Of a stretch of DNA of 64,000 nucleotides, positions 45,392 to 64,000 are shown piece after piece. This DNA comes from Nitrososphaera sp. (lineage in GTDB: Archaea; Thermoproteota; Nitrososphaeria; Nitrososphaerales; Nitrososphaeraceae). Made by a program: the position numbers and the translations under genes. The DNA lies in assembly GCA_038201105.1 (NCBI GenBank), contig JBBRRH010000001.1:8864-72863 (forward strand), given 5' to 3'. Each line of letters starts with the position of its first letter. The first letter of the stretch is position 1. The notes under the pieces were generated by a model, which did no database searches, was not told the DNA's origin, and was given only the letters and a program-made list of their open reading frames with translations.

Positions 45392-45407
45392 CGATGGATC
45401 GATCTGT

Positions 45408-47041: not shown

Positions 47042-48668
47042 GGAGTTCCTCCTCTATTCCCAACTCATTTGCCAATGGAATCAATATATGTTTACGTGTT
47101 TTCATCCAGTCATTACGAATATCCTTTATAGTTGCGATTTCCAATAATTTTCTTTCTAGTGCAACATTCGCCTTATGTCTTAATTGGATTATGTTAGAAT
47201 TTATATCTGCAGATCCGTATACTGCATTCCCTGCAACCATTATCCTAGCTCCTGCATCAAAAACTTGCTGGAGGTTCGTTGCGTCTACACCACCGTCCGC
47301 TTCAATGTAGCCATGATAATTGTGCTTTTTCAATTCTTTAGATATTTCGGCCATTTTGTCAAGACTGTCGGGGATGAACTTTTGACCTGCAAATCCTGGA
47401 TTAACTGACATTATTATTATAACATCTATTCTATCAAGATGCTTATACAGCCATGATGGAAATTTTGTATCAGGATTTATTGCGACGCCAGGACTAATCC
47501 CAGCTTTTAGTAGATTTTCATTTATTTCTAGAAATTCACTTTCATTACAGACCTCGGCATGTATGGTTATTATGTCACAGCGTGCTTCGATGTAATCTTG
47601 AATATGTTTCAGCGGTTCTTCGATCATTAAGTGGGCATCAAAAGGCAGACTCGTAATTTTTCGAAGATCCCTTATTTTGTTAGCAAAAAATGTTGTATTT
47701 GGAACAAATTTTCCATCCATAACATCAAGATGAATGAGATCAGCACCTCCACGTTCTGCCTTACGTACCTTTTCTTCATAATTTTCTCGTTCTCCCGCAA
47801 TAATCGATGGAGCGATCATAACCTCGCTTTGCAGTTCTTCTAACAGTATAGGCGTATGTTTCCTTGGCGGTGCCCTTCCATGCCATTGCGGGTTGTTTGC
47901 CATATGTTTTATACCGTTCCCTTTCACAGTATTGGCTATAATAATTGACGGTTTGTCCTCTAACCTCTCCACTCTGTTCAAAGCATCAATTAATTGCTCA
48001 ATCTTGTGTCCGTCAACCTCAAAAACATTCCAGTTAAATGCCATCCATTTGTCGCGAACAGGGTCGAGTGGCATTATTTCCTCAGTGAAACCGTCTTGCT
48101 GTATCTTGTTTCTATCCAAAATTGTGACAAGATTGTTAAGCCTGAACTTCGGGGCTGACATGGCAGCTTCCCAAATCTGTCCTTCATTTGATTCTCCATC
48201 TCCAATCAACGTATAAATTCGATTTCGCTTACCATCGGATTTCTTGGCAATTGCTATGCCTATAGAGACTGATAATCCGATACCTTCAGATCCACCTGAA
48301 TATTCAATACCCGGAAAGCTGTGTTGTTTCTGTAATTCTGAATACCTAACTGGATGGCCCTGAAGACGGGACCCAAGTTTTCTCAAGGTCTTCACTTCTT
48401 CGAAATCTATGTAACCAGCAACAGCAAGGGCAGCATAGAAGCCTGGAGCGGAATGTGCCTTTGAGTTTATGAAGTAGTCCCTGTCATCCCACAATGGTCG
48501 AGATGGGTCATGCTTCATCTTATGAAAGTAAAGGGCACCCATTATTTCAGCAGCTGAAAATGACGCGCCCGGGTGACCGGAACCGGCCTCTGCTATAGCT
48601 TGGATTGCAAGCATTCTTACATCCCTCACTTTTCTTTTGAGTTCTAAATATCGCATTTTAAATCCCAT
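47028..48668 (-). CDS. Transketolase N-terminal subunit fused to ribulose-phosphate 3-epimerase
   Basis: GSGHPG, SKAH, GDGESNEG, then APSI, HLDVMDG, DAHLM, MSVNPGFAGQ, ADGG. Confidence 0.92.
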   Translation of the reverse strand: MGFKMRYLELKRKVRDVRMLAIQAIAEAGSGHPGASFSAAEIMGALYFHKMKHDPSRPLWDDRDYFINSKAHSAPGFYAALAVAGYIDFEEVKTLRKLGSRLQGHPVRYSELQKQHSFPGIEYSGGSEGIGLSVSIGIAIAKKSDGKRNRIYTLIGDGESNEGQIWEAAMSAPKFRLNNLVTILDRNKIQQDGFTEEIMPLDPVRDKWMAFNWNVFEVDGHKIEQLIDALNRVERLEDKPSIIIANTVKGNGIKHMANNPQWHGRAPPRKHTPILLEELQSEVMIAPSIIAGERENYEEKVRKAERGGADLIHLDVMDGKFVPNTTFFANKIRDLRKITSLPFDAHLMIEEPLKHIQDYIEARCDIITIHAEVCNESEFLEINENLLKAGISPGVAINPDTKFPSWLYKHLDRIDVIIIMSVNPGFAGQKFIPDSLDKMAEISKELKKHNYHGYIEADGGVDATNLQQVFDAGARIMVAGNAVYGSADINSNIIQLRHKANVALERKLLEIATIKDIRNDWMKTRKHILIPLANELGIEEELHAIK

Positions 48669-50051
48669 AAAATCTGACTAAACCCCTTTCAACCTAATGG
48701 TTATTTTGGGGACAATGCTTGATAAAAAGATATACTTGTTATAAGAGGTTCCAAAAGATTCTAATTTCTATGCAGAATTTATTTGAACTCATTCAGTCAT
48801 GAACTGAATGCATTTCTGGCTCATTCGAGCATATTTCCAGTGTATTAATAGCCAACTACACACAATTTCCCGCAGGTTGGCATCGAATTCTAGATGTTTT
48901 GATAAATTTGGTAATCAATGGGATATGTTATCATGTTATAATCAATCCGCCATCCAAGAATTATGGGGGCCTCGAGGTTCTGGAATTGGATAGATTGGAC
49001 GAAAACGAAGTTGTTTCAGATGTAATTTGTGGTCAGGCAAACTAATCAACCTTATTTTCGGTAAAGTTCCCAAAAGATTTGTTTATGTCGTAGACATAGA
49101 TCCACCTACGGGTCATAAGCAAGAAGAGATCTAGCTAAGTTAAAAATTTTGAAGTCATTGAAGTCGACATTTCTCCAAGTAATTCTACCAATACAAATTG
49201 ATGTGAGCTTTTCAAATGCAAACATACATTGAATGCTAGATGATAGACAAAAGTTTACGAATTTTTGGTAGCTCCTAAAAGAGCACGGTATGCTTACGTA
49301 CCAATATGAATGAGAAGGAAAACTGGTATGATCCCTCGGGATATCGGACAGGGTTAGGCAGGATAACGATTTCAATAAGTATGGGGATGGATAGATCTTG
49401 GCATCTAGAAAGAGCGCCAGAAATTAAAAAACTGGATCAGTTAGGATTTGAAGAAATCAAATATGATTCTCTTAACTAGATGACTACTTTTCCAATGTCG
49501 ATCAATTCACGAATTTTAAGGACTCTTGTTAAAAGCCCACATTTTCTTTACTTATCAGGACAAGCTGACAGAGAATCGTGATAGCAGTAATTGAACATAA
49601 TAAGATTAGTCTTGAATCGTATAAAAAAATACAAATTATGAAACTTACAGTAATTACAAATTGAAATGTTACATAGTGTTAAAAGGAACATACAGGACGT
49701 GCATTATTCGATAATGCCGACAGGAAGCTGTAAGAGTTCTTGCAATATTGTTCATCTAGTCAAATCCAAAATAGTTGGAAATGTGGATTTTTTTAGATAT
49801 AGACCTGCTTACGTGCAATCGTTTATAGTTATGACAGGGTTCTCCTGGGGGACATATTAGTAACGTTTGGCATACGACAACTTGCAGTATGCGGTGTGAT
49901 GATTGGCTCTGCGATAAATGTTATGAAGGTTGACAATAACTTTTTACCCTTATTAGTTGACCATGGCGTTTCTACACTAGGAACTGATTTGAGTAAATTG
50001 TACCGTCCAGTTCTTGGTCCCTAATTCATTCAAATATTGAGCGTGAAAGAT

Positions 50052-50125
50052 AGCCTTGGCCGGGATTTGGACCCGGGACCTTTGCCTTACCAAGGCAACG
50101 CTCTACCAGGCTGAGCTACCAAGGC
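50052..50125 (-). tRNA. tRNA-Thr(GGT)
   Basis: Acceptor GCCTTGG/CCAAGGC, anticodon arm TTGCC-TT-GGT-AA-GGCAA, T arm CCGGG-TCCAAAT-CCCGG. Confidence 0.95.
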
Positions 50126-50135
50126 ACATTTGCAA
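50121..50135 (+). repeat. Left att core (overlaps tRNA-Thr nt 1-5 and 10 nt of upstream sequence)
   Basis: AAGGCACATTTGCAA, identical to 60788-60802. Confidence 0.8.
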
Positions 50136-50148
50136 CTAGATAAGTAAC

Positions 50149-50154
50149 TTTATA
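50149..50154 (-). promoter_or_regulatory. TATA box for tRNA-Thr, located inside the element
   Basis: TATAAA on the minus strand, 24-29 nt upstream of tRNA nt 1. Confidence 0.6.
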
Positions 50155-50186
50155 TTTGTTCTTACCCATTTACAAAGCTAACGAGA

Positions 50187-51518
50187 ATGCAGGTCATATC
50201 CTATAAAAAACCATTCGACAGATTCATTGACGCAATAGATAATGAAAAAACCAAGAGAGAGTATGTTAGCTGTCTTAGATTATTCATAATACACTATAAA
50301 GTTGGTAGATGGGAACAGATAGAGAAACAACCACTTAGAGACTCTGAAAGCAAAGAATTGATTTCGTTTAATTCTGAATGCGAAGAGTTAGTGAAGCTAA
50401 CAACAGAACAAGCCGAAGATATGATTATTGACTATATACTGTTCATGAAGAAAGAAGGTCTTTCGGAGGGCATTATAACTCAAAGAATAGCTGCATGTAG
50501 AAAGTTTTTCAGTTCTAATAGAATTAATCTAAATTGGGATTTTATCAATCAGCACAAGGGTAAATTTAAGAAAAAACAAAAGTCTGAAGCTTATACCCAT
50601 CAACAAATTCAGAAGCTATTGGAAACATGTGATTTAAGGACCCGTTGTATAGTCCTAATATTTTCCAGCACCGGGATTCGTATCGGTGCTCTACCTGAAC
50701 TCAAGCGTAGTAATTTGAAGAAGATTGGAGAAATTTATCAATTCACAATCTACGAAAATGAAGGCGAAGAGTATATGACATTTTGCACTCCTGAATGTGC
50801 TTCAGCAATAGATTCCTATTTAGATTACAGACAAAGGTCAGGAGAATCAATAACAGAAGACACCTATCTAATAAGAAGAGAATTTGATTCGGAAGACGTA
50901 AGACAGGTTCAAAGTGAATCACTCCCCATATCAGAGTCTACAATAAGAAATATTATGTCAAAAAGAATGGTAAAAGCCGGACTTAGAAAAGTAGAACATG
51001 GTGTTAATAAAACACATCGAAAAGAAATTCCTATTGACCACGGCTTCAGGAAATTCCATTCTTCACAGTTAGTTAATTCGAATATAAATACAGAGAAAAG
51101 ATGGCTGCTAGCAGGTCAAGCTTTACCAAAGAATGACGATGCTTATATTCGAGTAAAAAAAGAATTGTATCAAGAATACTGCAAGGCTATCCCTCTTCTT
51201 ACTATAGACCAGACCAAGAACCAAGAAAAAATTATTGAAAAGCAGCAACAGGAACTTAGCCAGATTGAATTATTGAAACTGGAACATAATCACCAGATGA
51301 AATTACTTTTAGAGGATAAGAAAAAAGGGAATAAACAAGTTGAACAACTCTCAGCTATGGTTCAGCAGTTAGCACAGAGAATGAAGGTATTAGATACTTT
51401 GGATATTAATGGAGATTTCAGCAAAGTTATAAACGAAAATTTTGAATTGAAAGAAATGATAAAACTAAACGACAACAAAGACCTATCTGAAATCGTTGAG
51501 GAATACACTGAAGAATAA
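50187..51518 (+). CDS. int: Tyrosine recombinase/integrase with coiled-coil tail
   Basis: STGIRIGAL (R), HGFRKF (HxxR), AGQALPKNDDAY (catalytic Y). Confidence 0.92.
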   Translation: MQVISYKKPFDRFIDAIDNEKTKREYVSCLRLFIIHYKVGRWEQIEKQPLRDSESKELISFNSECEELVKLTTEQAEDMIIDYILFMKKEGLSEGIITQRIAACRKFFSSNRINLNWDFINQHKGKFKKKQKSEAYTHQQIQKLLETCDLRTRCIVLIFSSTGIRIGALPELKRSNLKKIGEIYQFTIYENEGEEYMTFCTPECASAIDSYLDYRQRSGESITEDTYLIRREFDSEDVRQVQSESLPISESTIRNIMSKRMVKAGLRKVEHGVNKTHRKEIPIDHGFRKFHSSQLVNSNINTEKRWLLAGQALPKNDDAYIRVKKELYQEYCKAIPLLTIDQTKNQEKIIEKQQQELSQIELLKLEHNHQMKLLLEDKKKGNKQVEQLSAMVQQLAQRMKVLDTLDINGDFSKVINENFELKEMIKLNDNKDLSEIVEEYTEE

Positions 51519-51635
51519 GTTTGAGTCCCCTCAGCTGAAGAAGGACTGGGGAGAGGGATGGCTGTCAGTTACAACCCCTTACGAAACCTTACTTTTGTAT
51601 ACGTGCTGGAAGCATTTAGCTGTTTTGGAAATTAG

Positions 51636-51671
51636 TGTAAGAATTATTGTAAGAATTATTGTTAGAGTTAC
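51636..51671 (+). repeat. Three tandem 12-bp units
   Basis: TGTAAGAATTAT twice plus TGTTAGAGTTAC. Confidence 0.6.
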
Positions 51672-51909
51672 TATTCGTGGCTAGCTATTCACAGTAGGAA
51701 CAAAACATAAGATATGTTCCTTGTGCGGTACAAGATGCCGTAATTTACATATTAATGCCTATTTTCCTGTAAAATGCAATTTCACAATTAATTTTTATAG
51801 CATAATATTGATTAATTTAACCTCTACCATATTATTTTTTAGTAAGATAACCCTCTTAAGCTAAGAAATTAATGTATAGGACGGGATACAAGAAAATAAT
51901 CCTAGTCAT

Positions 51910-52140
51910 TTGACTAGTATACCAATATCTCGGGGAGTAGAATTCCAGCTCTCAAAGATAATGAAAGACAAATCCTATAGTAATGTGATACAAAATCTAA
52001 TCATAAACTATTGGAAGCAAAACGGAAATTGTAAGAGTGAAAATATAAGAACGGGAGGAGATATGCCCTGCAAGACTAGTCTCCAACCCAAAGCACATGA
52101 ATTGTCGTTAGGAGTCGATACAGCACACACGTATGGCTAA
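51910..52140 (+). CDS. Ribbon-helix-helix-like DNA-binding protein
   Basis: TSIPISRGVEFQLSKIM..KSYSNVIQNLI has the beta-helix-helix RHH pattern. Confidence 0.55.
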   Translation: MTSIPISRGVEFQLSKIMKDKSYSNVIQNLIINYWKQNGNCKSENIRTGGDMPCKTSLQPKAHELSLGVDTAHTYG

Positions 52141-52375
52141 TGTTTGTAAGTCAAGTAATGATAAGAAGTCCAAATATAAAAAGCAACCGGATTTATTAGC
52201 AAATAGGCAGGATGTTAATAACTCTGAACCTGTTCCAGAATATCATAGGAGGCTTGGCAAAACTGGTCCTCATAACAAGGCTAGAGGGTGGCGCAGCACC
52301 GAGGAGATTGAAGCTTCAAAGTATGATTTCTGGAAAAGCGTAGCCGAAGCTAGAAGGACCTCAAAAGTTGGCTAA
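52133..52375 (+). CDS. Hypothetical basic protein
   Basis: 80-aa ORF tightly packed in an operon. Confidence 0.6.
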   Translation: MANVCKSSNDKKSKYKKQPDLLANRQDVNNSEPVPEYHRRLGKTGPHNKARGWRSTEEIEASKYDFWKSVAEARRTSKVG

Positions 52376-52376
52376 C

Positions 52377-52517
52377 ATGTTCCAGTGCCGATATTGTGAG
52401 ACGTGGTGTGTTTGGATGAAGAACTACAAGTATGATAAGTGGTATCCAGTTAATGCCGTTTCAGGAACAAATCATACTTGTCTCAAAGATTACGTTAGGA
52501 AAGTGAGGATATACTAA
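52377..52517 (+). CDS. Small CxxC...HxC zinc-finger protein (46 aa)
   Basis: Manual translation MFQCRYCETWCVWMKNYKYDKWYPVNAVSGTNHTCLKDYVRKVRIY; 1-bp gaps to both neighbours. Confidence 0.75.
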   Translation: MFQCRYCETWCVWMKNYKYDKWYPVNAVSGTNHTCLKDYVRKVRIY

Positions 52518-52518
52518 A

Positions 52519-53130
52519 TTGACTTCTCCTGATGACGTCTATGGTACATTTAGTAAGTTCGATGCTATCAAAGATTATAAGTATAATCCTAATCCTAGTA
52601 ACTCAGAAGACCTCACCAAAGACCAACAAAGAGATATTGATAGACTAGAAGCAAAATGTGGTAAGATAGTAGTTACTAAGCAAAAGAAGGAAGAGGATAA
52701 GGTGAGTTTAGTCGAGGAAGCAAGCAGAACCATAATGGGATGGTATAATTTCGTAACTATAGAAGAGACGAAAGAAATTCTGTATTACAAAGACGGAGTC
52801 TATCTTACAGGTGGAGATATCATTATCGAGAAAGAAACAGAAAAGATATGTGGTTTTGAGTTAAGCAATAGCCAGATATCAGAGATTAAAGGACACATTA
52901 TGAGAAGGACTTATCAGATGAAAGGCATTTTACAACTAGCTTCCAGAATATATTATTTCTTTATGATTTCTCAAATTTTCGGAGGTGAGAATAGTGTTTA
53001 TCTGTCTCATCTGTCTCAACTTGTCTTCCTTGGTAAACAATCACATTCTTCTATAACACCTAATTTTACGACCAGTGCCAGCACCTCCAGTCCTTCACCA
53101 CAGCCTCACTTTACTACTCCAAAACCATAG
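52519..53130 (+). pseudogene. Truncated P4/D5-type primase-helicase (N-terminal part only)
   Basis: YNFVTIEETKEILYYKDGVY..GG..IIE...EIKGHIMRRTY resembles the region before D5-like helicases; no Walker A follows, and the frame turns low-complexity after about 52915. Confidence 0.6.
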
Positions 53131-53361
53131 CCTTTCTAAATCACAGTTGCTAGCTGAAGTCTCTTCCCATCCTTTACAGAAATCCTACTAACTTAGCTGT
53201 GCTTAAATTAATTTCACAGTGCTTGGCTAGCTGAGAGTTGGTAGGGTACTTCAGTTACTTAACAAAAGAGAAGTCTTCTAGTCTATTATATACAGAAACA
53301 CATATATACTAATATTCTATATTAATATACTGATGGCTGTGCAAACTATGAATGTCCTTAG

Positions 53362-53631
53362 TATGATTACTCTCTGATAACTACTGCTATCACCAAGTAT
53401 CTGGATGCAATACCTGTATCTGAAAGTGAGATTGATGGTATATTTTATAGTGTTTGGACATATTATGAAAGATGTGATATAGAACAGTGCCACACAACAA
53501 GAAGGACAGAAACAGGAAGAACAGAAAGAGGGAGAGAAACCGGCGGAGAAATTAGATAAGAAAAACAGATTAGTTGCAACTGCTAGTAGAACTAGAATGA
53601 AGCGTTATAATTTTATCACCATAGAAGAATC
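53362..53631 (+). pseudogene. Second primase-helicase remnant (frameshifted)
   Basis: LVATASRTRMKRYNFITIEES parallels LVEEASRTIMGWYNFVTIEET of the 52519 ORF; an upstream frame reads IPVSESEIDGIFYSVWTYY (PriCT-like). Confidence 0.6.
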
Positions 53632-53940
53632 TGTTAACTGCTCGACTTTCTTCTGGAGTTGGTTGCTAGGGTCAATAGTAAGATTGGGAATTGCTTTTTG
53701 ATATTCAGTTAAAAGTTGGTCCTCCTGTCTTAGATAGCTGGGGTCATTTGCTTTCAATTTTCTACCTTCAAGAAGCCACCTCCTTTCTGTTATTAACCCA
53801 GCGTCGACGCACTGGTTACTGAACCATTTTCTGAATCCATGACAAACTTTTACATACAGTCGGCTTCAAGTAAACTTTCCTGTACTTTAGTCCTGCTTAA
53901 TTTAATTCAGTCACGCTTAACTTACTCATAGTTGGTTGAG
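53605..53940 (-). pseudogene. Inverted C-terminal fragment of a second tyrosine integrase
   Basis: Frame 53865 to 53605 reads VKVCHGFRKWFSNQCVDAGLITERRWLLEGRKLKANDPSYLRQEDQLLTEYQKAIPNLTID, versus HGFRKFHSSQLVNSNINTEKRWLLAGQALPKNDDAY...EYCKAIPLLTID in the intact integrase; disrupted MSKL..*AGL upstream. Confidence 0.88.
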
Positions 53941-54275
53941 TACTATTGCAATTATTTTACTGCCCCATAACAACCCCTTTTACAGGACCAGACCTAGAAG
54001 ATTCTTCTACTTCAATAGTTTTCCAACAAGGTAGCCCAAGGACCTTAACTAGAGATTATCTCAACATAATCTCACTATCTAGTTGTGATTACCCAAATTA
54101 CTCCATTGTTAACTACTGTGCAGCTCAATGCCTTTTTTTGGACAAGCAGCATCTACAACTGTTTAATTGTTCATTCATGTAAAAACAGTGACATTTTTAG
54201 GACAATCGGTATTCTGTTATTACGATATTGGGTTGACATGACAATTCAGCAATAGCTAAATAGTATGAAGTGTCT

Positions 54276-54416
54276 ATGAACATTATGGTTAATCGAACCA
54301 ATAGTAAACGTAATAGCACTATAGAATATACTGTTCATGGAAGCCCATTAAGTAAACGTAAAGGAAAGAAAGGTATTCAGACCTTCGTTAATGTGTCTGA
54401 TAGGAGTTCTAGGTAA
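54276..54416 (+). CDS. Small basic hypothetical protein (46 aa)
   Basis: Manual translation MNIMVNRTNSKRNSTIEYTVHGSPLSKRKGKKGIQTFVNVSDRSSR. Confidence 0.4.
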   Translation: MNIMVNRTNSKRNSTIEYTVHGSPLSKRKGKKGIQTFVNVSDRSSR

Positions 54417-54430
54417 TGTCTGATACAGTT

Positions 54431-54592
54431 ATGACTAATAGTCCTATCATAAGACATATCCAGAAATGTAATGGGTCTATGTCAGTTAATGTTCCTTCAG
54501 CATTAGCCAAGAAACTAGGTTTGACAGCACATAGTTTAGTCAAGTTCTCTACTCAAGAGAACAAGTTAGTATTAGAGGGTGTTCAAATTTGA
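54431..54592 (+). CDS. AbrB/MazE/SpoVT-family DNA-binding protein (53 aa)
   Basis: RHIQKCNGSMSVNVPSALAKKLGLTAHSLVKFSTQENKLVLE; TTGA overlap with the next gene. Confidence 0.8.
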   Translation: MTNSPIIRHIQKCNGSMSVNVPSALAKKLGLTAHSLVKFSTQENKLVLEGVQI

Positions 54593-55389
54593 GCAGTCCA
54601 GAGTCTACTACAGCAAGTAGTGAATTGTCCGGTGACCTGAATAGTAGGACTAGAGTCGTAGATACGACTACCAAAACCACACAACCCTTCAAGTTACAGC
54701 AAGTTGCCCTAGCCAAGACGTTTAAAGACGGTCAAACTAAAGTCAAAACAAGAGAGCAAGTAATAGCTGAACATGCAGTATATGTGTATCCTTTACTTGC
54801 TAAGCAGTACGCAGACTTGGGACTGCAGCTGGAGATAGACTCAGAGACAAGTAACTTGACTGAAATATCATTATACTGTAAGCCAGAAACTAGAACCAGC
54901 AAAGTTACTACTGTGGTCCTTGAACACCGTCTTAACCGACTTAACAATACCAAAGGTACTTGGCTAGTATGGTACTCGTGGGAGTTCGGTATCACTGATA
55001 AGAAACAAACACTATCAGCATGGGTTAGTCATGGACTCGATTATCAGGTATCTCTTATCCCAGAGCATGATAATGATGGTAATGAGATTATGCCATCCAT
55101 AGGTGAGAAATATCAAATATTTTCAGTACCATTTAGTAAAGAAGAATTGGATAAGGTTCTTGAAGGTCAAGACACTGACAGCATAGCCTTCACTGTAAAC
55201 TATGGTTCTAGTTCACACACTGGCTTCAGTTATGAGGAATTTGCTAACTTACCAATAGAAGAGGTCATCGAGCGTGGGAAAATCGGGAGGCAAAATAGTG
55301 ATTTATCGTTAATGTTCTCCGAGTTATCAACAAAGGACAAGGTTGCATTGACGTTACAAGGTCAGAGGGCTAAGGACCTAAAGGTATGA
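54589..55389 (+). CDS. Hypothetical protein (266 aa, beta-rich core)
   Basis: Translationally coupled to AbrB genes on both sides; no catalytic motif recognised. Confidence 0.75.
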   Translation: MSSPESTTASSELSGDLNSRTRVVDTTTKTTQPFKLQQVALAKTFKDGQTKVKTREQVIAEHAVYVYPLLAKQYADLGLQLEIDSETSNLTEISLYCKPETRTSKVTTVVLEHRLNRLNNTKGTWLVWYSWEFGITDKKQTLSAWVSHGLDYQVSLIPEHDNDGNEIMPSIGEKYQIFSVPFSKEELDKVLEGQDTDSIAFTVNYGSSSHTGFSYEEFANLPIEEVIERGKIGRQNSDLSLMFSELSTKDKVALTLQGQRAKDLKV

Positions 55390-55547
55390 CAGCAAAACTC
55401 ATTCGTGTAGGACAAAATAATAACTATAGCAAATCAATAATACTACCTTACAAGGTCTGCAGGTCTCTAAATATTTCTAAAGGTGATATTCTGTCTTGCA
55501 GGATATCGAAAACTAACATAGTCTTAAGTAAAGTGGAGGTTTCCTAA
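55386..55547 (+). CDS. AbrB/MazE/SpoVT-family DNA-binding protein (53 aa)
   Basis: KLIRVGQNNNYSKSIILPYKVCRSLNISKGDILSCRISKTNIVLSKV; ATGA overlap. Confidence 0.8.
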   Translation: MTAKLIRVGQNNNYSKSIILPYKVCRSLNISKGDILSCRISKTNIVLSKVEVS

Positions 55548-55548
55548 G

Positions 55549-55704
55549 TTGAATGTTAATAAGAAGTCTGATAGTCATTTAGTAGATAAATTATTAGCTG
55601 AAATAGAAGCTGATAAGAATCCTAAGACGAAGTCCCGTCCCGACCCATTGGACAAAAGCCTAAGTCAGTTCTTCAAGCCAATTTCAGTAAGGGATAACCG
55701 ATAA
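55549..55704 (+). CDS. Small hypothetical protein (51 aa)
   Basis: TTG-start ORF filling the gap exactly; TAATG overlap with the next gene. Confidence 0.5.
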   Translation: MNVNKKSDSHLVDKLLAEIEADKNPKTKSRPDPLDKSLSQFFKPISVRDNR

Positions 55705-56102
55705 TGAGCCAAGGTCCAGATAGTAAATTACCAAGTCCCTTAGCACCTCTAGCACCTAGTATAACTGACGACCCAAGACATACTATAAAACAAATTAGCA
55801 AACGTAGGGAAGCATTTCATAACCAAGTATCTTCTATTAACAAAAGAACTCAAGAACAAATGGAATCTAGAGAACAAGCAATACAAGCAACCAAAAACTT
55901 TAGTGGAGTTAGGATACTATTTTGTGGTCTTTGTAATAGCCGATTAGTAAAGTCCAAGAAAACAATTCATAATGAAGTTCTCAATATGGATACTCCTATT
56001 TACAAGTGCAGCGTCTGCTCGGCTAAGTATAATGGGTTTATTCCCTTTATTAGACATAGTAGCAAGTCCGATTTACTTGCAGAGATAGTCGAGTATCAGT
56101 AA
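55704..56102 (+). CDS. Coiled-coil plus Zn-ribbon protein
   Basis: CGLC...CSVC. Confidence 0.7.
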   Translation: MSQGPDSKLPSPLAPLAPSITDDPRHTIKQISKRREAFHNQVSSINKRTQEQMESREQAIQATKNFSGVRILFCGLCNSRLVKSKKTIHNEVLNMDTPIYKCSVCSAKYNGFIPFIRHSSKSDLLAEIVEYQ

Positions 56103-56533
56103 TGACCATTAGAAGAAAGAAGGCTAATTCGTATCTAGACGAAGAAGACGAAATTGAAAAGTCAATGTGTTCGGCTTGCTACAACCTTGACGAGCTGGTC
56201 ATATTCATGGTACCCTATGTTATGTCCAATGGGAAAAGGGATAAAGGGTTTATGCGCTGCCCTGAATGTCAAAACGTTGTAAGTATCAAACAAGCCCGTT
56301 ACTTCTCAGAGACAGGAGTGCTTGGGAGAGAAGGAGGTATTTCTAAACCTCACTTTGAAACAGTCACAAAGAGACGCAGGATTGATAGGAATTTACAATC
56401 TGAAGGACCTGAGTTCAATCCTGACGACTACAAGTTTTCATTTGGTCCAGATAAAGACCTTGAGTACTGGAATAATGTAGGAGTCGTTACCAGTGTTACT
56501 GACTCTGGTATTGACTCTGAAGAATCTCCATGA
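56102..56533 (+). CDS. Zn-ribbon protein
   Basis: CSAC...CPEC; TAATG coupling. Confidence 0.7.
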   Translation: MTIRRKKANSYLDEEDEIEKSMCSACYNLDELVIFMVPYVMSNGKRDKGFMRCPECQNVVSIKQARYFSETGVLGREGGISKPHFETVTKRRRIDRNLQSEGPEFNPDDYKFSFGPDKDLEYWNNVGVVTSVTDSGIDSEESP

Positions 56534-56670
56534 CGGATATTTCCACTTATGACCCTCCTACTTTAGGAGTGAAAAAGGACTCACTTGGGTCTGAGAATAA
56601 CAATGATAGGTTATACCATTACTATCGAACAATATTCTCAGACCCAGCTCACACAACCTTGGTGAAATAA
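56530..56670 (+). CDS. Small hypothetical protein (46 aa)
   Basis: MTDISTYDPPTLGVKKDSLGSENNNDRLYHYYRTIFSDPAHTTLVK; ATGA overlap. Confidence 0.45.
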   Translation: MTDISTYDPPTLGVKKDSLGSENNNDRLYHYYRTIFSDPAHTTLVK

Positions 56671-56674
56671 TATA

Positions 56675-56953
56675 GTGAATGCTGATTGGTATCTTGAGAA
56701 AGCACAGACCTTTTATGATAAAGGTCAAATCGAGTTAGCAGAGTTAAAAATACTAGCAGGTATTATTAAGAACCCTCTTAATGAAGACCTTCGAATAGCA
56801 CTATCCAATATCTACTTCTATCAATCAAAATACAAAGAATGTCTGTATGAATTAGAACAATTAAAGAAATTTTCAAATAATCTAAAGGTTGACGGAGCTA
56901 TAGTATTGGTAAAAGTAAAATTATCCAATAAACCAATGATTCCATATGGCTAA
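56675..56953 (+). CDS. TPR-like helical protein
   Basis: YLEKAQTFYDKGQ.E.A...IIKNP.NEDLRIALSNIYF...KYKECL. Confidence 0.65.
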   Translation: MNADWYLEKAQTFYDKGQIELAELKILAGIIKNPLNEDLRIALSNIYFYQSKYKECLYELEQLKKFSNNLKVDGAIVLVKVKLSNKPMIPYG

Positions 56954-57030
56954 ATTCATGGAGAGGATATATTGTTTAGCTCTATATCTTTCTTCTGTAA
57001 CTATAGCTCGAAACGATATATAAAGAGCTC

Positions 57031-57252
57031 ATGTATAATATGTATTTGATAGCTGCAATGGAGCATGGCAAATACTGTACCATAAGGTTTCCCACAATTG
57101 AGGATATGGGTAAAGCATTTGAGGTGATTATAAATGATAATGGTAGATTCTCAGGTGTTGACCAAGATACAATAACCATTTCTGGTGCTCAATGTGAGAT
57201 TTTGGAAGGTCTAAAAACAAATAATGAATTAAATTATGACCACTTAGAATAA
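57031..57252 (+). CDS. Hypothetical protein (73 aa)
   Basis: ORF 4 bp upstream of the 57257 gene. Confidence 0.6.
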   Translation: MYNMYLIAAMEHGKYCTIRFPTIEDMGKAFEVIINDNGRFSGVDQDTITISGAQCEILEGLKTNNELNYDHLE

Positions 57253-57256
57253 TCAT

Positions 57257-57577
57257 GTGGTTCATCAAACCAAAGCAGAGATAATCATTCCAATTTATTA
57301 TAATGATGGAACCAAGATAGAATCTGTCAAACATGTATATACTTATCGAGAAATAATTACTCAATTCAATCACTGCACAGAAGACAAATCTTTGCTTGTA
57401 GGGGATTGGACAGATGATGCTGGTAAGCAATATAAAGATAGAAACTTTGCATATTTTGTTTTGTATAACGATTCATATGACAACATCTATTTTTTAGATG
57501 AATTAAAAAAAAGGCTAGAAGACAGATACCAACAATACGAAATATTGATTTATCTCACCAATGTGACAAGATTATGA
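57257..57577 (+). CDS. Hypothetical protein, IIIP..YNDG...G.W...Y.D...LK.R..Q.EI family
   Basis: Pattern recalled from a widespread uncharacterised small alpha/beta family; not database-verified. Confidence 0.65.
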   Translation: MVHQTKAEIIIPIYYNDGTKIESVKHVYTYREIITQFNHCTEDKSLLVGDWTDDAGKQYKDRNFAYFVLYNDSYDNIYFLDELKKRLEDRYQQYEILIYLTNVTRL

Positions 57578-57659
57578 GCTCGGTAACTAGTAAGTCTTTA
57601 CCATTTTGGGAGCTCTGAACTTTTCCGTTTACAATAATTATAGTTTTGATAAAATTACT

Positions 57660-58178
57660 TCAACACAACAAAACTTCTCTTTCTTCCAATGCTACGTGGG
57701 GATGATTTTCTATTATTAGACCATTCTCCACGATATCTTTTTCTTCGAATACTCCAATTATTAATTTACCCTTGCCTTTTGTTAAAGTTGGTTTGGGTTG
57801 TATAGACCATTCAAACTTACGTTTTTTGTTTTCAAAATTGAGGGTACCGGTCTGCCTATTTGACCCCAAATCCATTACAGTGTTTCTATTCTCGCACCAG
57901 TTATAATCGTTTAAACAATCTACAATTTTACAGCTTAGGAATCCACGTTTAACAGTTCCATCAAATTTTGCTGAGATATTCGTAAAACTACCTATCTTTA
58001 TTTCATATGGAGTCTTAACTTTGCTAAGTTTCTGTTTACCATCCTTCGAAATATCGTTAGTATATCTTTTAAGTCGCTTTTTTAAGTATGCGTAGAAATC
58101 TTCATTTCGAGCAACGACGAAGCTAGTAATAATCGAACCGATTATAGCTATAATGCCAGATAGCCAACCATCAACCAA
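57660..58178 (-). CDS. Membrane-anchored beta-rich protein
   Basis: N-terminal TM segment WLSGIIAIIGSIITSFVVA followed by a beta-rich domain. Confidence 0.65.
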   Translation of the reverse strand: MVDGWLSGIIAIIGSIITSFVVARNEDFYAYLKKRLKRYTNDISKDGKQKLSKVKTPYEIKIGSFTNISAKFDGTVKRGFLSCKIVDCLNDYNWCENRNTVMDLGSNRQTGTLNFENKKRKFEWSIQPKPTLTKGKGKLIIGVFEEKDIVENGLIIENHPHVALEEREVLLC

Positions 58179-58458
58179 TATACCAATAACAAGAAGGGAA
58201 GATATAACTTTTAATTGTGACTACATTTAAAGTGACCTTACTTAATTGAAGAAGAATTGACTGATATCCTTCCACATTTCCAAGTTTAGGTTTTGGGTTC
58301 TAATTCGATACCTGATATTTTTTTATATTTTCAATCGATACTCAAGATACTGTTCATCCGACTTACTATGAACTCTAGACCCTTCATTTCCTTTTCTATT
58401 TTAAAAAATTATAAATATGGTTTTTGGAATTTGGAAGCTCCCTTACAAACTCTTTCAT

Positions 58459-58597
58459 AACTGGGAGGGTCTGGTTTCCCTCAGAACTCAGACCTTTCCA
58501 GTTTTATCTTAAACATTTCTGACACCAATATTACTAACTCCCAACAGCATTTTCTTACTGGAGGTCTGTATCGAGTCCAATTGAATGGACCTCCAGT
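58459..58597. repeat. Hairpin cluster A (58459-58503, 58557-58597)
   Basis: AACTGGGAGGGTCTG/CAGACCTTTCCAGTT (15 bp including G-T pairs); ACTGGAGGTC/GACCTCCAGT (10 bp perfect). Confidence 0.8.
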
Positions 58598-58605
58598 TAT
58601 TCCAT

Positions 58606-58725
58606 TTATCCAGATAATGAGTCTTTGTCTCTATAACCGAATCCACAACTAGGACATTTTTTTCCCGTTTCCAGTTTCTCCAATTCGTCTCCACATTCAG
58701 GACATTGTTCAACTTCTTTGGTCAT
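58606..58725 (-). CDS. CPxCG zinc-finger microprotein (39 aa)
   Basis: MTKEVEQCPECGDELEKLETGKKCPSCGFGYRDKDSLSG. Confidence 0.75.
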   Translation of the reverse strand: MTKEVEQCPECGDELEKLETGKKCPSCGFGYRDKDSLSG

Positions 58726-58816
58726 TGAATTGAATAAAGCCTTTTCAGAATATAACTTTTTATAATCTGATATGCGTATAAAAGACTCCTAACAGCATTT
58801 TCTTACAGGAGGTCCC

Positions 58817-59191
58817 TTATCTTGGAACAGTTAAGTAGAAATCTGTTCCAGAATTAAAGTTTAAAGTTGTTGAATAACACGATGGTACTCCAGGTATCCC
58901 ATTACCAACATCTGTTAAACATGCTGTTGCTGATTCTCCATTCGTAAAACCGTAGCTTGTGTCGAGGAATCTTGTAAATTCATTCCCTATAAAAGGTGCT
59001 AACCATAATCTCCATAGTTGATACTCCCCATGACTACCGGTTACCGTTACAATTACACTATTACCAAAGGCTCCTATTCCTTGAAAGTGAAAATACACAT
59101 TAGTGGTATATGCGTTTACAAGCGGCATCATTGGAACAACACTTGAAAAAACCCCTAGCAGAATTGCTATTATTAAAATTGATTTTTTCAT
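58817..59191 (-). CDS. Secreted beta-rich protein with a Cys pair
   Basis: Signal peptide MKKSILIIAILLGVFSSVVPMMPLVNA; mature domain with two Cys. Confidence 0.72.
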   Translation of the reverse strand: MKKSILIIAILLGVFSSVVPMMPLVNAYTTNVYFHFQGIGAFGNSVIVTVTGSHGEYQLWRLWLAPFIGNEFTRFLDTSYGFTNGESATACLTDVGNGIPGVPSCYSTTLNFNSGTDFYLTVPR

Positions 59192-59586
59192 TTTATTTTA
59201 TCACATCTGGTTACGCCTGTTAACATAATGTTTAATTGAATTATTGTTCAATTGTATTATGCTATGTGTATCTACCTAGTAAGGATTTGGTATCAGACTT
59301 CAGAAAAATGGTATGGTATAATGTAACTTTCAGTCCATCCCAAAACTTGACCCTCAGCCTCCAAATTAATGATGGATAGACTTACGTTCTTGAAATCCTA
59401 AATTCACTGTTACTTACTGCCTTACCAATAGTTTGAATACAAATGAAATCGAATAAGAATTGCCGAAATAAAGGGAAAAAGAGCACTAGATATCTGGAAA
59501 GCCTTAGGAACTGATGGACTAAGTTATAACATGACTCCCAAAGGAGTTTTAGAATTCTATAGAGAAGAGGTGAGTACCATCTGAAA

Positions 59587-59694
59587 ATGAATTTTGCAGT
59601 TAAAGAGAAACCCAAACCAGAGACATACTATGACCAGTTTGAGAAAAACTGTAACTGTATCATATGTAAAATAACCAAGGGAGCTAAGGCTTGA
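59587..59694 (+). CDS. Cys-rich microprotein (35 aa)
   Basis: MNFAVKEKPKPETYYDQFEKNCNCIICKITKGAKA; TTGA overlap with the next ORF. Confidence 0.45.
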   Translation: MNFAVKEKPKPETYYDQFEKNCNCIICKITKGAKA

Positions 59695-59897
59695 ATACTG
59701 AACAATCTAGATGTATTATCAATCTGTCCAGTTCTATAGACACACTTAATCATGAGTATCATACTGAGAGTGAGATGGTTGCATTTGATAAAATAAAGAG
59801 GGTATTCATTGACCTATGTCAACTCGATTTAACTAACCACGATAATATCGAGATACACGAATTTAAAGGTGAGTTGTTCCAAAAGGTAGCAAATTAA
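59691..59897 (+). CDS. Hypothetical protein (68 aa)
   Basis: Operon packing with both neighbours. Confidence 0.5.
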   Translation: MNTEQSRCIINLSSSIDTLNHEYHTESEMVAFDKIKRVFIDLCQLDLTNHDNIEIHEFKGELFQKVAN

Positions 59898-59898
59898 A

Positions 59899-60276
59899 AT
59901 GTCCAAGTTTGTAGAAATTATAATTTTGGTTGCTATCCTATCACTAATTTTAGTAGGCTTAAAGATTGCTTACGGACAGGATTGGCTTACTGAGCATGGA
60001 AATGACTCCATTACTGGGACTCCATCTATGCAACAAATAATAAAGAACGCTCAGAATATGACTCATAAAAATGTCACTACTGATATTATAAAAGTAGGTG
60101 AAGAGAACTTGAAACTTATTAATAGATTGACAATGGTACTTAACTCATGCACAGAAATAATTACGTCTGAAGACTCAAGTTCAACATGTGAGAAGTTTCA
60201 GAGATTGGAGAATAAATATCTTAAACAACTATTCAATGAAACCAGACCTGAAGTAGAAAAGATTCTCTTAGACTAA
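59899..60276 (+). CDS. Secreted helical protein
   Basis: Signal peptide MSKFVEIIILVAILSLILVGLKIAYG; helical body with a Cys pair. Confidence 0.65.
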   Translation: MSKFVEIIILVAILSLILVGLKIAYGQDWLTEHGNDSITGTPSMQQIIKNAQNMTHKNVTTDIIKVGEENLKLINRLTMVLNSCTEIITSEDSSSTCEKFQRLENKYLKQLFNETRPEVEKILLD

Positions 60277-60475
60277 CCTTATCTATGGACCACACTGATA
60301 TTTTCTAGAGCCAATAGGAACAGCTATATCTCCCTATTTTACTTTATTACTTCCGAAGAAACGAATTGTCTACAAACAGTCACGTGTGAAGGGGAGTAAT
60401 CCCTTTCATTTTCTTACAAGTCCTTTTATTCTATGAAGCTCTTAGTAATTACCTTACTAATGAGAATCAAATCTT

Positions 60476-60748
60476 CTGGAGGGAGTTGCCTTTGACATCA
60501 CCTCCCTCCAGTTTAAATAGAATCATAATTAACTTGGAGACTTACTCATTCGCTGGAGAGACCAGAGGTTTTACAAATTTTCCTCTGGACCTACTCCAGC
60601 TTCTGAAATTTGAAACTAAAATAACAGCAAGATGTATTGAATATTATACCTCTAATGTTTTTATAGTTAGTTGAAAACGTTTATCGTTTAGCAACAAACT
60701 GGAGGAGTCCAAAGGTAGGCTGATAGCTCCTCTTGGATTCTCCAGTTT
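60476..60748. repeat. Hairpin cluster B (60476-60511, 60552-60600, 60696-60748)
   Basis: CTGGAGGGAG/CTCCCTCCAG; GCTGGAG/CTCCAGC plus CCAGAGG/CCTCTGG; AAACTGGAG/CTCCAGTTT plus GTCCAA/TTGGAT. Confidence 0.82.
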
Positions 60749-60787
60749 TCAATTATCTCATTCTTTGTTACCATTTAAATATACACA

Positions 60788-60802
60788 AAGGCACATTTGC
60801 AA
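60788..60802 (+). repeat. Right att core
   Basis: AAGGCACATTTGCAA, identical to 50121-50135. Confidence 0.8.
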
Positions 60803-60894
60803 GATATCAAGAACCGATGAGGGTTTCATTAAGGTATCTATGCATTTTGTAACATTTAATTACCAAGAAATTCATCAATCTCGCTGGTATTTTT

Positions 60895-61010
60895 GCGGGG
60901 GTTGTAGAGCCTGGCCAAATAATTAACGTTTGGAGACGCGGGACTTAAGATCTTACTCAGGAGGGATCCCGTCCTTCAGGGGTTCGTGGGTTCAAATCCC
61001 ACCCCCCGCA
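60895..61010 (+). tRNA. tRNA-Leu(TAA) with two introns (60921-60935 in the D arm; 60950-60965 at 37/38)
   Basis: Acceptor GCGGGGG/CCCCCGC; removing AATTAACGTTTGGAG restores D stem GTA/TAC; anticodon stem CGGGA/TCCCG; T arm GTGGG-TTCAAAT-CCCAC. Confidence 0.85.
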
Positions 61011-61027
61011 CCTTAAGCTCGTATTAG

Positions 61028-61657
61028 CTATTCTCTCCTAGATCTCATTATTAATGCAACGAGAAGTTTATGAAACCTCAGATCACCAGAAAGCTCAGGG
61101 TGGAATGAAGTACCAATTATATTTCCTTGCTGAACGGCAACTACTTTCTCTGCGAACCTGCCAAGTATCTTAACATTTGTCCCAACCTTGGTAACTGATG
61201 GAGCTCTTATGAAGACACCTCTAAAATCCTCTCCCTCAAGTCCGTCAATGGGTAAATTCGCCTCAAATGATTCATTCTGCCTTCCAAAGGAATTCCGCTC
61301 TACTACAATGTCTAAAACACCCAAGAGTTGCTGGTTCATTTCGCCAACCACACTGTCATATGCTTTCTTAGCCATCACAATCATCCCCGCACAAGTACCC
61401 ATTGCAGGCATTCCCTGTATCAGCCTTTTTTGCAAAGTTGTCTGTATGCCGGACTTTAATGTTAGTAGATTCCCTATAACAGTACTTTCTCCACCTGGAA
61501 TGATCAAGCCATCAACACTTTCAAGCTCTTTCTGATATCGAACAGGCGTTGTATAGGCATTCAAGGAAAGCGAACTCATTGCATCTCTTGTGGCGACAAT
61601 ATTTTCTTCGATATCTCCCTGCAGAGCAAGGATACCTATATTAATTTCATGGCTCAT
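61028..61657 (-). CDS. pdxT: PLP synthase glutaminase subunit
   Basis: [35 protein letters not shown]. Confidence 0.96.
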
Positions 61658-62625
61658 ACAGAGGGTCCTCTCTCTTGCATCTTTAGATCCAAGTTCTTTG
61701 TATCTAATCCAAGCATAGACTTCCTCTCATCGACCATTTTCTGTGCCTCCATAACGATTTTTGGATCATCAAAGTAGGTCGTAGCCAGTACAATTGCCTT
61801 TGCACGTTCCAAGGGGTCCTCAGCTATGAATACACCTGAACCGACAAATATGCCATCACAACCCAGGTTCATCAGCAAAGCAGCGTCAGCCGGAGTTGAT
61901 ACTCCTCCTGCGGCGAAATTCACAACAGGTAACCGTCCGAGACGACCAGTTTCCTTCACTAATTCAAAGGATGTCCTAAATTCGCGTCCAACTCTTATTA
62001 ACTCTTGAAGATCTTCGTCTTCGTAGACGGATCTTATTTTTCGTATATCACCATTCACACTCTGTATGTGCGTCACCGCTTCAGCTACGTTCCCGGTACC
62101 AGGCTCTCCTTTAGTTCTAATCATAGCCGCGCCTTCCTCTATTCTTCTTAGAGCTTCACCGAGGTTTTTGGCACCATTGACAAATGGAGTTGTATAATCC
62201 CATTTCCAGATGTGTCGTTCTTCATCTGCAGGTGTAAGAACTTCACTCTCATCTACCATGTCAACGCCTACCTCTTGGAGGATAAGAGCTTCAGAGGCGT
62301 GACCAATTCTACATTTTGCCATAATGGGTATACTTATCGAATCCAAAATCTGCTCAATTACTTTTACACTTGCTGTCCTAGCTACACCCCCTGCTTTTCT
62401 CACGTCAAATGGTAGCTTGTCCAGTACCATAACTGCCACTGCACCGGCCTCTTCCGCGATGTGTGCCTGTTCTACATTAGTTACGTCCATGATTACCCCG
62501 TGTTTTTGCATATGGGCAAATCCACGTTTTACTAGCGAAGTTCCTCTAACAACTTCTTTTTTACCGATGATAGATTTCTTTATTCCCCTGAAAGAATCTG
62601 CAGAGGGAATAAGGGATATGGTCAT
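61654..62625 (-). CDS. pdxS: PLP synthase lyase subunit
   Basis: [44 protein letters not shown]. Confidence 0.97.
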
Positions 62626-62792
62626 AATTCTAGTGTCTGAAATGCAATATTTAGGTATTAGTTTCCATTGAAGGCAGGATCAGTGCTAGACATTGAATAA
62701 GTGCAAACTATTTTCTTCAATAGTACGAGGATTTTTTTTCTCTGCATTGGCATAATGAAAATCCAATTAGTTCAGCTCACTTCAAGTTTGCT

Positions 62793-64000
62793 TCAAGTTC
62801 TTCTTCGAAGTACATTTAATGCCGATCCAGCACGGAACCAATCAAGCTGAGAAGTGCTATAAGAATGGTTCAATAGTATTTCTTCAACTTTGCCGTCCTC
62901 GTGGCGCAAACTGCATGTTACCGGCTTACCTTGTTCGAGATCTTTTAGCCCAACTATGCTCAATTTGTCTCCTTCCATTATTTTGTCGTAATCACGAGGA
63001 TCCGTGAATGTAAGAGCAAGGATTCCCTGTTTCTTAATATTTGTCTCGTGGATCCTAGCAAAACTCTTTGCAATAATGGCGGCGCATCCCAGATATCTGG
63101 GGGTCATTGCCGCATGTTCTCTGCTGCTTCCTTCCCCATAGTTTTGATCCCCGATAATTATCCACATGATATGCTTCAACTTGTAATCTCTTGCAATTTC
63201 AGGGAAGGACTGGGTACTACCATCTAGAATATTTCTTCCACTTCCTACATTTCCATTGAAAGCATTAACGGCCCCAAGAAGAAGATTGTCACTTATCTTG
63301 TCTATGTGTCCTCTGAACATCAGCCATGTTCCAGCAGGTGAAATATGATCGGTGGTACACTTTCCCTTTACCTTTGCCAGTATTGGCAGATTATCAAAAT
63401 CATTACCGTCCCATGGTTGAAAAGGCTCAAGTTTTTGTAGCCTGTTACTGTTATTCTTTATTATAAGATTTACACTATCAGGTTCAGCAGATGGTGGAAC
63501 ATATACATCAGTAACTTGGATAAAGCCTTTAGCTGGAATTTCTGGTGCTGGTTCGGGGGGTTCTAATTTGACTCTTGACCCATCTTCCGCAGTAATCTCG
63601 TCTACAATAGGATTGAATGATAGTCTGCCAGAAAGAGCCAAGGCTATTACAACCTCTGGACTCGATATGAAATTCATAGTTTCCCTTCTTCCATCATTTC
63701 GGCCTGGAAAGTTTCTGTTATACGAAGTTACGATAGTGTTTGTTTCACCCTTTTTCAATTCAGGTCTACTCCATTGTCCTATACACGGTCCGCAGGCATT
63801 CGCAAGGACTGTAGCGCCAATTGATTGCAGCAAACTTATTTGCCCGTCCCTATCAATCGTCGCTCTAATCATTTCTGAGCCAGGAGTAACAAGCAGAGAG
63901 GTCTTTATCTTTAGCCCCTTAATTTTAGCTTGCTCTGCAATGCTTGCCGCGCGGGACATATCCTCGTATGAAGAGTTAGTACAACTACCAATAAGTGCTA
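62793..64000 (-). CDS. acn: Aconitate hydratase, C-terminal part (5' end outside the window)
   Basis: IGSCTNSS at the edge, ANACGPCIGQW, NRNFPGR, TTDHISPAG, NYGEGSSREHAA. Confidence 0.95.
   Translation of the reverse strand, partial: ALIGSCTNSSYEDMSRAASIAEQAKIKGLKIKTSLLVTPGSEMIRATIDRDGQISLLQSIGATVLANACGPCIGQWSRPELKKGETNTIVTSYNRNFPGRNDGRRETMNFISSPEVVIALALSGRLSFNPIVDEITAEDGSRVKLEPPEPAPEIPAKGFIQVTDVYVPPSAEPDSVNLIIKNNSNRLQKLEPFQPWDGNDFDNLPILAKVKGKCTTDHISPAGTWLMFRGHIDKISDNLLLGAVNAFNGNVGSGRNILDGSTQSFPEIARDYKLKHIMWIIIGDQNYGEGSSREHAAMTPRYLGCAAIIAKSFARIHETNIKKQGILALTFTDPRDYDKIMEGDKLSIVGLKDLEQGKPVTCSLRHEDGKVEEILLNHSYSTSQLDWFRAGSALNVLRRRT

Follow-up and report, generated by a model that had tools for sequence, protein, structure and literature searches.

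The pTN3-like integrases of Thermococcales (pTN3, TKV2/TKV3-type; Krupovic & Bamford 2008 and Cossu et al. 2017) are described in section 18 of PMC8371274 as unique in archaea in targeting the 5' half of a tRNA gene. The same section has the recombinant tRNA expressed from the integrase promoter, that is, from element-borne sequences, as the literature infers, and states that bacteria rarely do likewise. One bacterial element is also cited as recombining with the 5'-distal part of a tRNA gene. Cossu et al. (PMC5495485) described the tRNA-Leu reconstituted in this manner as "separated from its original promoter". In a survey of thaumarchaeal elements, every tRNA-targeting element but one was found at the 3' end of its target, the exception being CalSub-E1 (PMC6563490). 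Here, we show that a stretch of 64,000 nucleotides from Nitrososphaera sp. (GenBank assembly GCA_038201105.1, contig JBBRRH010000001.1, positions 8,864 to 72,863; this entire stretch is referred to as the window, and its first letter is position 1) carries an integrated element at the 5' boundary of a tRNA-Thr(GGT) gene. The insertion displaced the conserved motif upstream of this gene and brought a TATA-containing region of the element into its place, next to a divergent integrase gene. Integration at the 5' side of a tRNA gene with loss of its promoter is rare but already known from other archaea, and the locus overturns nothing in that picture. The initial annotation had set this site against the anticodon arm, T arm, or 3' end restored by most tRNA-targeting integrases, but the principle had already been published and is less new than was assumed.

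Like the pTN3-like elements, the Nitrososphaera element employs a tyrosine recombinase acting on the 5' part of a tRNA gene, and a full-length tRNA is parted from its original promoter. However, the attP of pTN3 lies inside the integrase reading frame, so that integration splits the gene into int(N) and int(C) in the "suicidal" SSV-type manner, whereas int is intact here, as is the case for pNOB8-type (non-partitioning) integrases. The pTN3 core extends over 41 bp of the 5' half of tRNA-Leu, whereas the core found here is 15 bp long and includes 5 tRNA nucleotides, the rest being leader. In pTN3 the tRNA gene is co-directional and situated behind int(N), in contrast to the divergent arrangement of tRNA and int around one common TATA region in Nitrososphaera, and the hosts are hyperthermophiles rather than a mesophilic soil ammonia oxidiser. 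Judged by its description (PMC6563490), CalSub-E1 of Ca. Caldiarchaeum subterraneum is likewise a 5'-distal integrant of the cryptic integrated class, but its host belongs to the Caldarchaeales, its target is another tRNA, and it comes without a described promoter analysis or integrase family of this habit. Thaumarchaeal cryptic integrated elements with XerC/XerD-like integrases are similar in size (median 17 kb, many <20 kb), in their short att sites (median 17 bp), in their ORFan cargo, in having the integrase adjoin one att site, and in frequently targeting tRNA genes. Yet the surveyed tRNA-targeting elements of true Thaumarchaeota are all 3'-distal (PMC6563490), whereas the 5' boundary is the target of the present element and of at least five relatives. 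The locus differs from these systems in its unpartitioned int with attP 51 bp upstream, in a core that enters the tRNA by only 5 nt, in the divergence of tRNA and int around one TATA, and in a 5'-boundary habit that can be assigned to a recognisable lineage of integrases, found in mesophilic ammonia oxidisers of soil.

Decisive support for the insertion comes from empty sites. A genome scan with pdxT yielded 80 loci, nearly all from metagenome-assembled genomes of Nitrososphaeraceae, and seven of these formed the empty-site set, four with pdxT 92-99% identical to that of the window (L001-L004) and three with pdxT 65-70% identical (L005-L007). In all seven, the sequence corresponding to 44000-50135 joins that of 60785-64000 directly, the two alignments overlapping by 18 bp, and tRNA-Leu and tRNA-Thr stand divergently with a 102-bp spacer between them (e.g., in L001). 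Hosts whose flanking DNA is 95-97% identical to the window are empty. The host genes on either side are a transketolase/ribulose-phosphate epimerase fusion on the left and pdxT, pdxS, and an aconitase-family gene on the right. The segment 50136-50186 is missing from each of the seven genomes, including the TATA region at 50136-50166, which thus belongs to the element. These comparisons bear out what had been proposed from the window alone: the empty pdxT/tRNA-Leu/tRNA-Thr locus exists in relatives, synteny breaks exactly at the suggested boundaries, the two tRNA genes come to lie about 100 bp apart without the element, and the TATA region (proposed as 50136-50160) is not host sequence.

The boundaries coincide with an exact 15-bp repeat, AAGGCACATTTGCAA, whose two copies (50121-50135 and 60788-60802) are the only ones in the window even when 2 mismatches are allowed, and whose starts are 10,667 bp apart. 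As first described, it consists of tRNA nucleotides 1-5 and 10 nt upstream of them: on the tRNA strand it reads TTGCAAATGT (leader positions -1 to -10) followed by GCCTT. A repeat finder extended the similarity to 17 of 18 bases (50118-50135 versus 60785-60802), so that the core comprises tRNA nucleotides 1-5, or 1-8 with one mismatch. This sole mismatch is at tRNA position +6, with G at attL and T at attR, which indicates that the attR side is an imperfect copy derived from attP and that exchange took place between -10 and +5. Only 10 nt of native upstream DNA remain at tRNA-Thr. A copy of the tRNA-Thr 3' part was not found at attR, and the position of the crossover does not match the tRNA classes of Williams (2002), which use the anticodon loop, the T loop, or the 3' end and keep the original promoter.

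Taken by itself, the repeat is weak evidence, since 2 of 100 shuffled controls also gave two matches to the 15-mer with 2 mismatches allowed (mean 0.24 matches), and one might argue that it is a chance repeat with the true boundaries elsewhere, or that ancestral host DNA was precisely deleted in the relatives. The empty-site alignments and junction sequences of L001-L007 rule this out. Seven genomes with pdxT 65-99% identical share the tRNA-Leu/tRNA-Thr spacer and break exactly at the repeats. Moreover, the segment opens with an integrase, has a lower GC content than its surroundings (33-38% inside versus 40-45% in the flanks), and lacks homologues at the related host loci, and relatives of its integrase occupy the same junction with different cargo. 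We give ancestral DNA or a chance repeat practically no credence and regard the insertion and its exact boundaries as next to certain.

The promoter context of tRNA-Thr was altered by the insertion. In about 30 loci, with pdxT 50-99% identical to that of the window, the motif AGATAYCTTAATGAARCCC is kept upstream of tRNA-Thr, whereas the surrounding spacer is not. We read this motif as the native TATA box of tRNA-Thr with its transcription factor B recognition element (BRE). In most loci, 27-34 nt separate the end of its TTAATGAA core from tRNA +1. An archaeal TATA box is usually centred about 26-27 nt before the transcription start, and this geometry predicts that the native start lies within the att core, some 8-12 nt ahead of the mature 5' end. 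In the window, the motif lies beside attR, facing the right end of the element, and the conserved TATA motif of the divergent tRNA-Leu is untouched (see the table below for coordinates).

At attL, 61 bp separate the 5' end of the tRNA (50125) from the ATG of the integrase (50187), and this gap contains TTTATATTT (50149-50157, plus strand). Read along the tRNA strand, the sequence gives TATAAA at -29 to -24, the position within the gap before the divergent integrase that the initial annotation had given. The element-borne motif AATATAAA ends 23 nt from tRNA-Thr +1, and the same TATA lies 30 nt before the int ATG. Corresponding distances from motif end to +1 are 23 nt for tRNA-Ile (AATAAATA) and 25 nt for tRNA-Leu(CAA) (ATGAAATA) in the same window, and mostly 23-29 nt, with various motifs, in the upstream regions of 39 non-redundant host tRNAs. 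Among hexamers preceding long open reading frames (ORFs) in the window, TTTATA is the one most over-represented, and both orientations of the TATA motif occur there as forward TATA boxes (the AATATAAA form, for example, at the gene at 14291 and at tRNA-Ile). The TATA is flanked by inverted BRE-like sequences, GTAAC and GTTCTTAC, each purine-rich on its own strand, and these flanks might represent a two-way BRE-TATA-BRE arrangement. The promoter swap suggested from the window alone is thus upheld as far as the native motif is displaced and an element TATA stands at tRNA-like spacing; promoter function itself is an inference. From the arrangement of these motifs, it is plausible and rather probable that the TATA of the element supplies the promoter of tRNA-Thr.

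The following course of events, taken as a whole, seems to us the probable explanation of the locus. Site-specific recombination by its own tyrosine integrase would have placed the element at the 5' boundary of tRNA-Thr(GGU), with an attP core (approximately ACAAAGGCACATTTGCAA) located 51 bp upstream of int recombining with an attB made up of 10 leader nucleotides and tRNA nucleotides 1-5 (1-8 with one mismatch). The most likely place of strand exchange is the heptad TTTGYAA, which occupies -10 to -4 and so lies outside the mature tRNA. Integration would have left the tRNA intact, moved its native TATA motif 10.7 kb away to attR, and replaced it at attL by the integrase promoter region, a quasi-symmetric TATA (TTTATATTT) with purine-rich BRE-like flanks. 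Most likely, this single TATA is active both ways, with int and tRNA-Thr driven on opposite strands, and the transcript of tRNA-Thr would start at or a few nucleotides from +1, whereas the native promoter is predicted to start it about 10 nt upstream.

Relatives of the integrase show that use of this junction is a habit of the family. We compared the contigs of ten integrase homologues with the integrase of the window. Integrases with 60-63% identity (L084/L085, L086, L087, L096, and L097) are all divergent from a tRNA-Thr(GGT) identical in 74 of 74 positions, and the junction common to these tRNA-Thr relatives is AAGGCACATTTGTAA followed directly by CTAGATAAG (also given as AAGGCACATTTGTAA followed by CTAGATAAGTAAC). 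Another contig, L088, begins within the core and does not cover the flank. The arm at 50136-50166 is identical in 31 of 31 positions in L086, L087, L088, and L096, in 30 of 31 in L084 and L085, and in 28 of 31 in L097, although the int DNA of these relatives is only about 73% identical. Each of 11 related-integrase loci, including the contig of the window's own integrase (L081), has one copy of the arm motif, and none was detected in the 80 pdxT loci. A second core copy was not found within 10 kb in L084, L086, L087, L088, L096, or L097. Apparent int frameshifts in L086, L087, and L088 were not taken as decay, because these are long-read-style contigs that may contain sequencing errors. More distant integrase relatives (26-32% identical; L082 and L083) sit after the 3' end of tRNA-Lys in the classical arrangement. 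A scan of metagenome contigs for the integrase returned two distant relatives only, both at the 3' end of tRNA-Lys, and viral contigs (IMG/VR) contained no match for the integrase, the arm motif, or the 43-nt block downstream of int.

Relatives with 54-57% identical integrases (L089/L090 and L098) match the first 24 nt of the arm in 22 positions but adjoin no tRNA. Over eight other contigs with related integrases (54-63% identical), the nearly unchanged arm stands at the 5' edge of tRNA-Thr in five and at non-tRNA sites in two. The left flanks at these two non-tRNA sites mimic the core, as CAAATTCACCTTTGTAA and, at the end of a coding gene, ACACAAAGGCGAATTTGTGA. L098 (1-130) and L089 (4100-4185) are such non-tRNA integration sites, and one of them has the TGA stop of a coding gene within the core-like sequence. 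We considered L098 as a free attP junction and rejected this, as terminal overlap is lacking and a host coding gene, resembling the core, ends in the left flank; we read it as an off-target integration. All sites share TTTGYRA, which takes the form TTTGYAA at tRNA-Thr sites, and TTTGYAA is the likely 7-bp strand-exchange overlap.

Several points weigh against the proposed mechanism. The TATA arm is kept at non-tRNA sites as well and is therefore in all likelihood primarily the integrase promoter; expression or binding of the integrase suffices to explain its conservation, which does not prove a role for the tRNA. The placement of the overlap leans on two off-target sites for which attP is not known. 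RNA runs containing the locus were not found, and a literature search for transcription start or BRE data from ammonia-oxidising archaea returned nothing relevant. The copy number of tRNA-Thr(GGU) is beyond what a 64-kb window can tell, and this gene may not need expression. In the four best DNA runs, examined as Logan contigs and not as reads, we saw no attP or excision joint, although such contigs hide rare variants. Finally, the element, which contains a second-integrase relic and is without a recognisable replication gene, may no longer be mobile.

The insertion could be real and the TATA at 50149-50157 nevertheless serve the integrase only. In that case, tRNA-Thr would be transcribed from another element sequence or by antisense read-through across int, or it would be poorly expressed, with a backup tRNA elsewhere. 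In addition to the equal conservation of the arm at non-tRNA sites, the position of the TATA 30 nt before the int ATG, normal for a promoter, is consistent with this alternative. Yet its reverse-strand form AATATAAA is the one used as a forward TATA elsewhere in the window, it stands at the modal tRNA spacing, both of its flanks are purine-rich on their own strand, and at least six occupied sites all have an unchanged tRNA, which argues that occupancy is tolerated. We consider an integrase-only TATA unlikely. Given how archaea decode, no anticodon other than GGU is expected to read ACC and ACU. A lineage that uses the 5' boundary of tRNA-Thr(GGU) must replace the promoter of a probably essential tRNA.

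A second alternative concerns reversibility: the element could be a fixed, decayed remnant that is unable to excise, and the promoter swap would then be a permanent host feature and not a reversible coupling. The second integrase is indeed only a 75-aa relic, and library searches of the element ORFs did not find replication, capsid, or conjugation genes. In the metagenome that is the probable source-like sample (X1), the whole element was present at a depth equal to that of its flanks, with attL and attR only and no attB or attP joint. However, the integrase ORF retains its full length and every catalytic residue, the two 15-bp cores have not diverged from each other, and close hosts are empty, as were the sites in metagenomes X2 and X4, while X3 contained an empty site alongside an occupied junction of the TTTGTAA type from a related element. 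In L086, the host flank is 90% identical to the window but int only 73%, so elements at the same site are more diverged than their hosts. Together with the emptiness of close hosts, this points to repeated gain and loss. A permanently fixed remnant is possible, though in our judgment not probable, and we retain the two-way promoter installed by a site-specific integrase as the preferred explanation.

Coordinates of the element, its integration site, and neighbouring features in the 64-kb window
Feature	Position	Strand	Remarks
tRNA-Thr(GGT)	50052-50125	-	ARAGORN; Rfam 67.7 bits; intact; 74/74 identical to copies at empty and other occupied sites
attL core	50121-50135		15-bp exact repeat; similarity runs to 50118
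Integrated element	50136-60802 (equivalently 50121-60787)		10,667 bp; low GC; missing from seven related genomes
Conserved integrase-side arm CTAGATAAGTAACTTTATATTTGTTCTTACC	50136-50166		Holds TATA 50149-50157
Tyrosine integrase	50187-51518	+	443 aa; unsplit by integration; PF00589
43-nt block	51703-51745		Two small hairpins, downstream of int
Cargo	51910-60276		About 20 small ORFs, mostly plus strand
Second-integrase relic	53638-53862	-	75 aa, C-terminal catalytic part (HGFRKW...RWLLEG...SYLR)
Right-end arm	60476-60745		270 bp; six CTCCAG/CTGGAG motifs, two long hairpins
attR core	60788-60802		Matches the attL core over all 15 bp
Displaced native tRNA-Thr promoter motif AGATACCTTAATGAAACCC	60821-60839	-	Adjoins attR; 10.7 kb from tRNA; faces right end of element
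TTTAATTA-type TATA motif of divergent tRNA-Leu	60849-60864	+	Conserved; untouched by integration
tRNA-Leu(UAA)	60895-61011	+	Host flank; genuine; two variable inserts (D-loop region, anticodon loop) relative to orthologues

The integrase matches PF00589 above the curated cutoff (E=2.9e-7) and phrog_1 integrase (E=1.2e-10). Its catalytic residues R165, H285, R288, W306, and Y320 were located, which places it in the tyrosine recombinase/phage integrase superfamily. The best curated model, XerA_Arch, gave a partial match of 48 bits, far under its cutoff of 220. Integration leaves the int reading frame continuous, with the core 51 bp upstream of the ATG. Past the catalytic tyrosine, residues ~340-443 (window 51200-51518) form a charged, coiled-coil-like tail of about 100 aa, which is missing from many shorter homologues (352-380 aa).

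None of the cargo ORFs was matched significantly in Pfam, PHROGs, NCBIfam, or PADLOC. Weak AbrB/MazE-like matches were obtained for two ORFs, two resemble zinc ribbons, and related elements have only the integrase in common with this one. Searches of the same libraries gave no matches for capsid, portal, terminase, or other virion genes, nor for replication or conjugation genes. With an integrase and att sites and without signature genes of viruses, casposons, or conjugation, the element fits the class of thaumarchaeal cryptic integrated elements, although the ORFan cargo could conceal unrecognised virion or replication genes, and a novel virus is possible. The second-integrase relic is 45% identical to the Int of the element and 50-60% identical to its relatives, and its N-terminal 277 residues are gone. 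It marks the element as mosaic or partly decayed, and it suggests that elements once lay nested or in tandem here, or that they recombined with one another.

The 43-nt block is 95% identical in L086 (11048-11090) and L088 (1376-1418), whereas int DNA there is only about 73% identical. Two iteron-like copies of GTAAGAATTATT are located just downstream of int, before this block (51636-51745), and the Logan contigs of four metagenomes break at 51703. The region 51636-51745 might function as an origin, as a terminator, or as a regulatory RNA. The right-end arm has a fold z-score of -4.6, and its CTCCAG/CTGGAG motifs number 47 in the whole 64 kb. It is a candidate for arm sites or terminators. As the displaced native tRNA-Thr promoter faces it, this region could be transcribed in the integrated state only.

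The tRNA-Leu(UAA) gene in the host flank was overlooked by ARAGORN and the Rfam tRNA model because of its two inserts, and ARAGORN assigns its orthologues in other loci several different amino acids. At the 3' side of tRNA-Thr, the 1.4 kb at 48669-50051 has a low GC content (35-37%) and is less conserved than its surroundings (75% versus 92% in L004; 90% versus 97% in L001), and the corresponding gap in L084 is only about 455 nt. Older insertions at the 3' end of this tRNA-Thr may have left it behind. In two loci, the first 7-8 tRNA nucleotides are duplicated directly upstream of tRNA-Thr, as GCCTTGGT followed by a second GCCTTGGT in L022 (~7190-7205) and as CCTTGGTCTTGGT before the tRNA in L021 (~10860-10880), and L022 and L033 have about 22-24 nt extra between the native TATA motif and the tRNA. 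Earlier recombination at this site may have left the duplications and the extra sequence as scars. A contig of metagenome X4 carries an identical tRNA-Thr with a different AT-rich upstream sequence, TTTTATTATAAAAAATTA, like the Nitrosocosmicus-type region of L060 and L074-L077, which shows that the tRNA sequence is common across genera while promoters differ.

Mobile elements of ammonia-oxidising archaea are known almost solely from sequence, and the locus described here is a compact case of a probable shared divergent archaeal promoter, with 61 bp and one TATA. It is tempting to speculate that a Nitrososphaeraceae integrase clade has evolved an attP with a symmetric BRE-TATA-BRE cassette, which serves both int and a presumed sole copy of tRNA-Thr(GGU) with a start at or next to +1, while strand exchange occurs in the tRNA leader at the native start and the displaced promoter reads into the hairpin-rich right end. 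In this full form the proposal is tentative and, with all its parts combined, rather doubtful. If it is true, integration would turn a leadered tRNA into a leaderless or near-leaderless one, and the displaced tRNA promoter would yield RNA from the right end of the element in the integrated state only. The supply of tRNA and the transcription of the integrase would then compete for, or share, one TBP/TFB site. The defined attP/attB pair (15-18 bp) and the intact integrase from a mesophilic archaeon could serve the development of genetic tools for Nitrososphaera.

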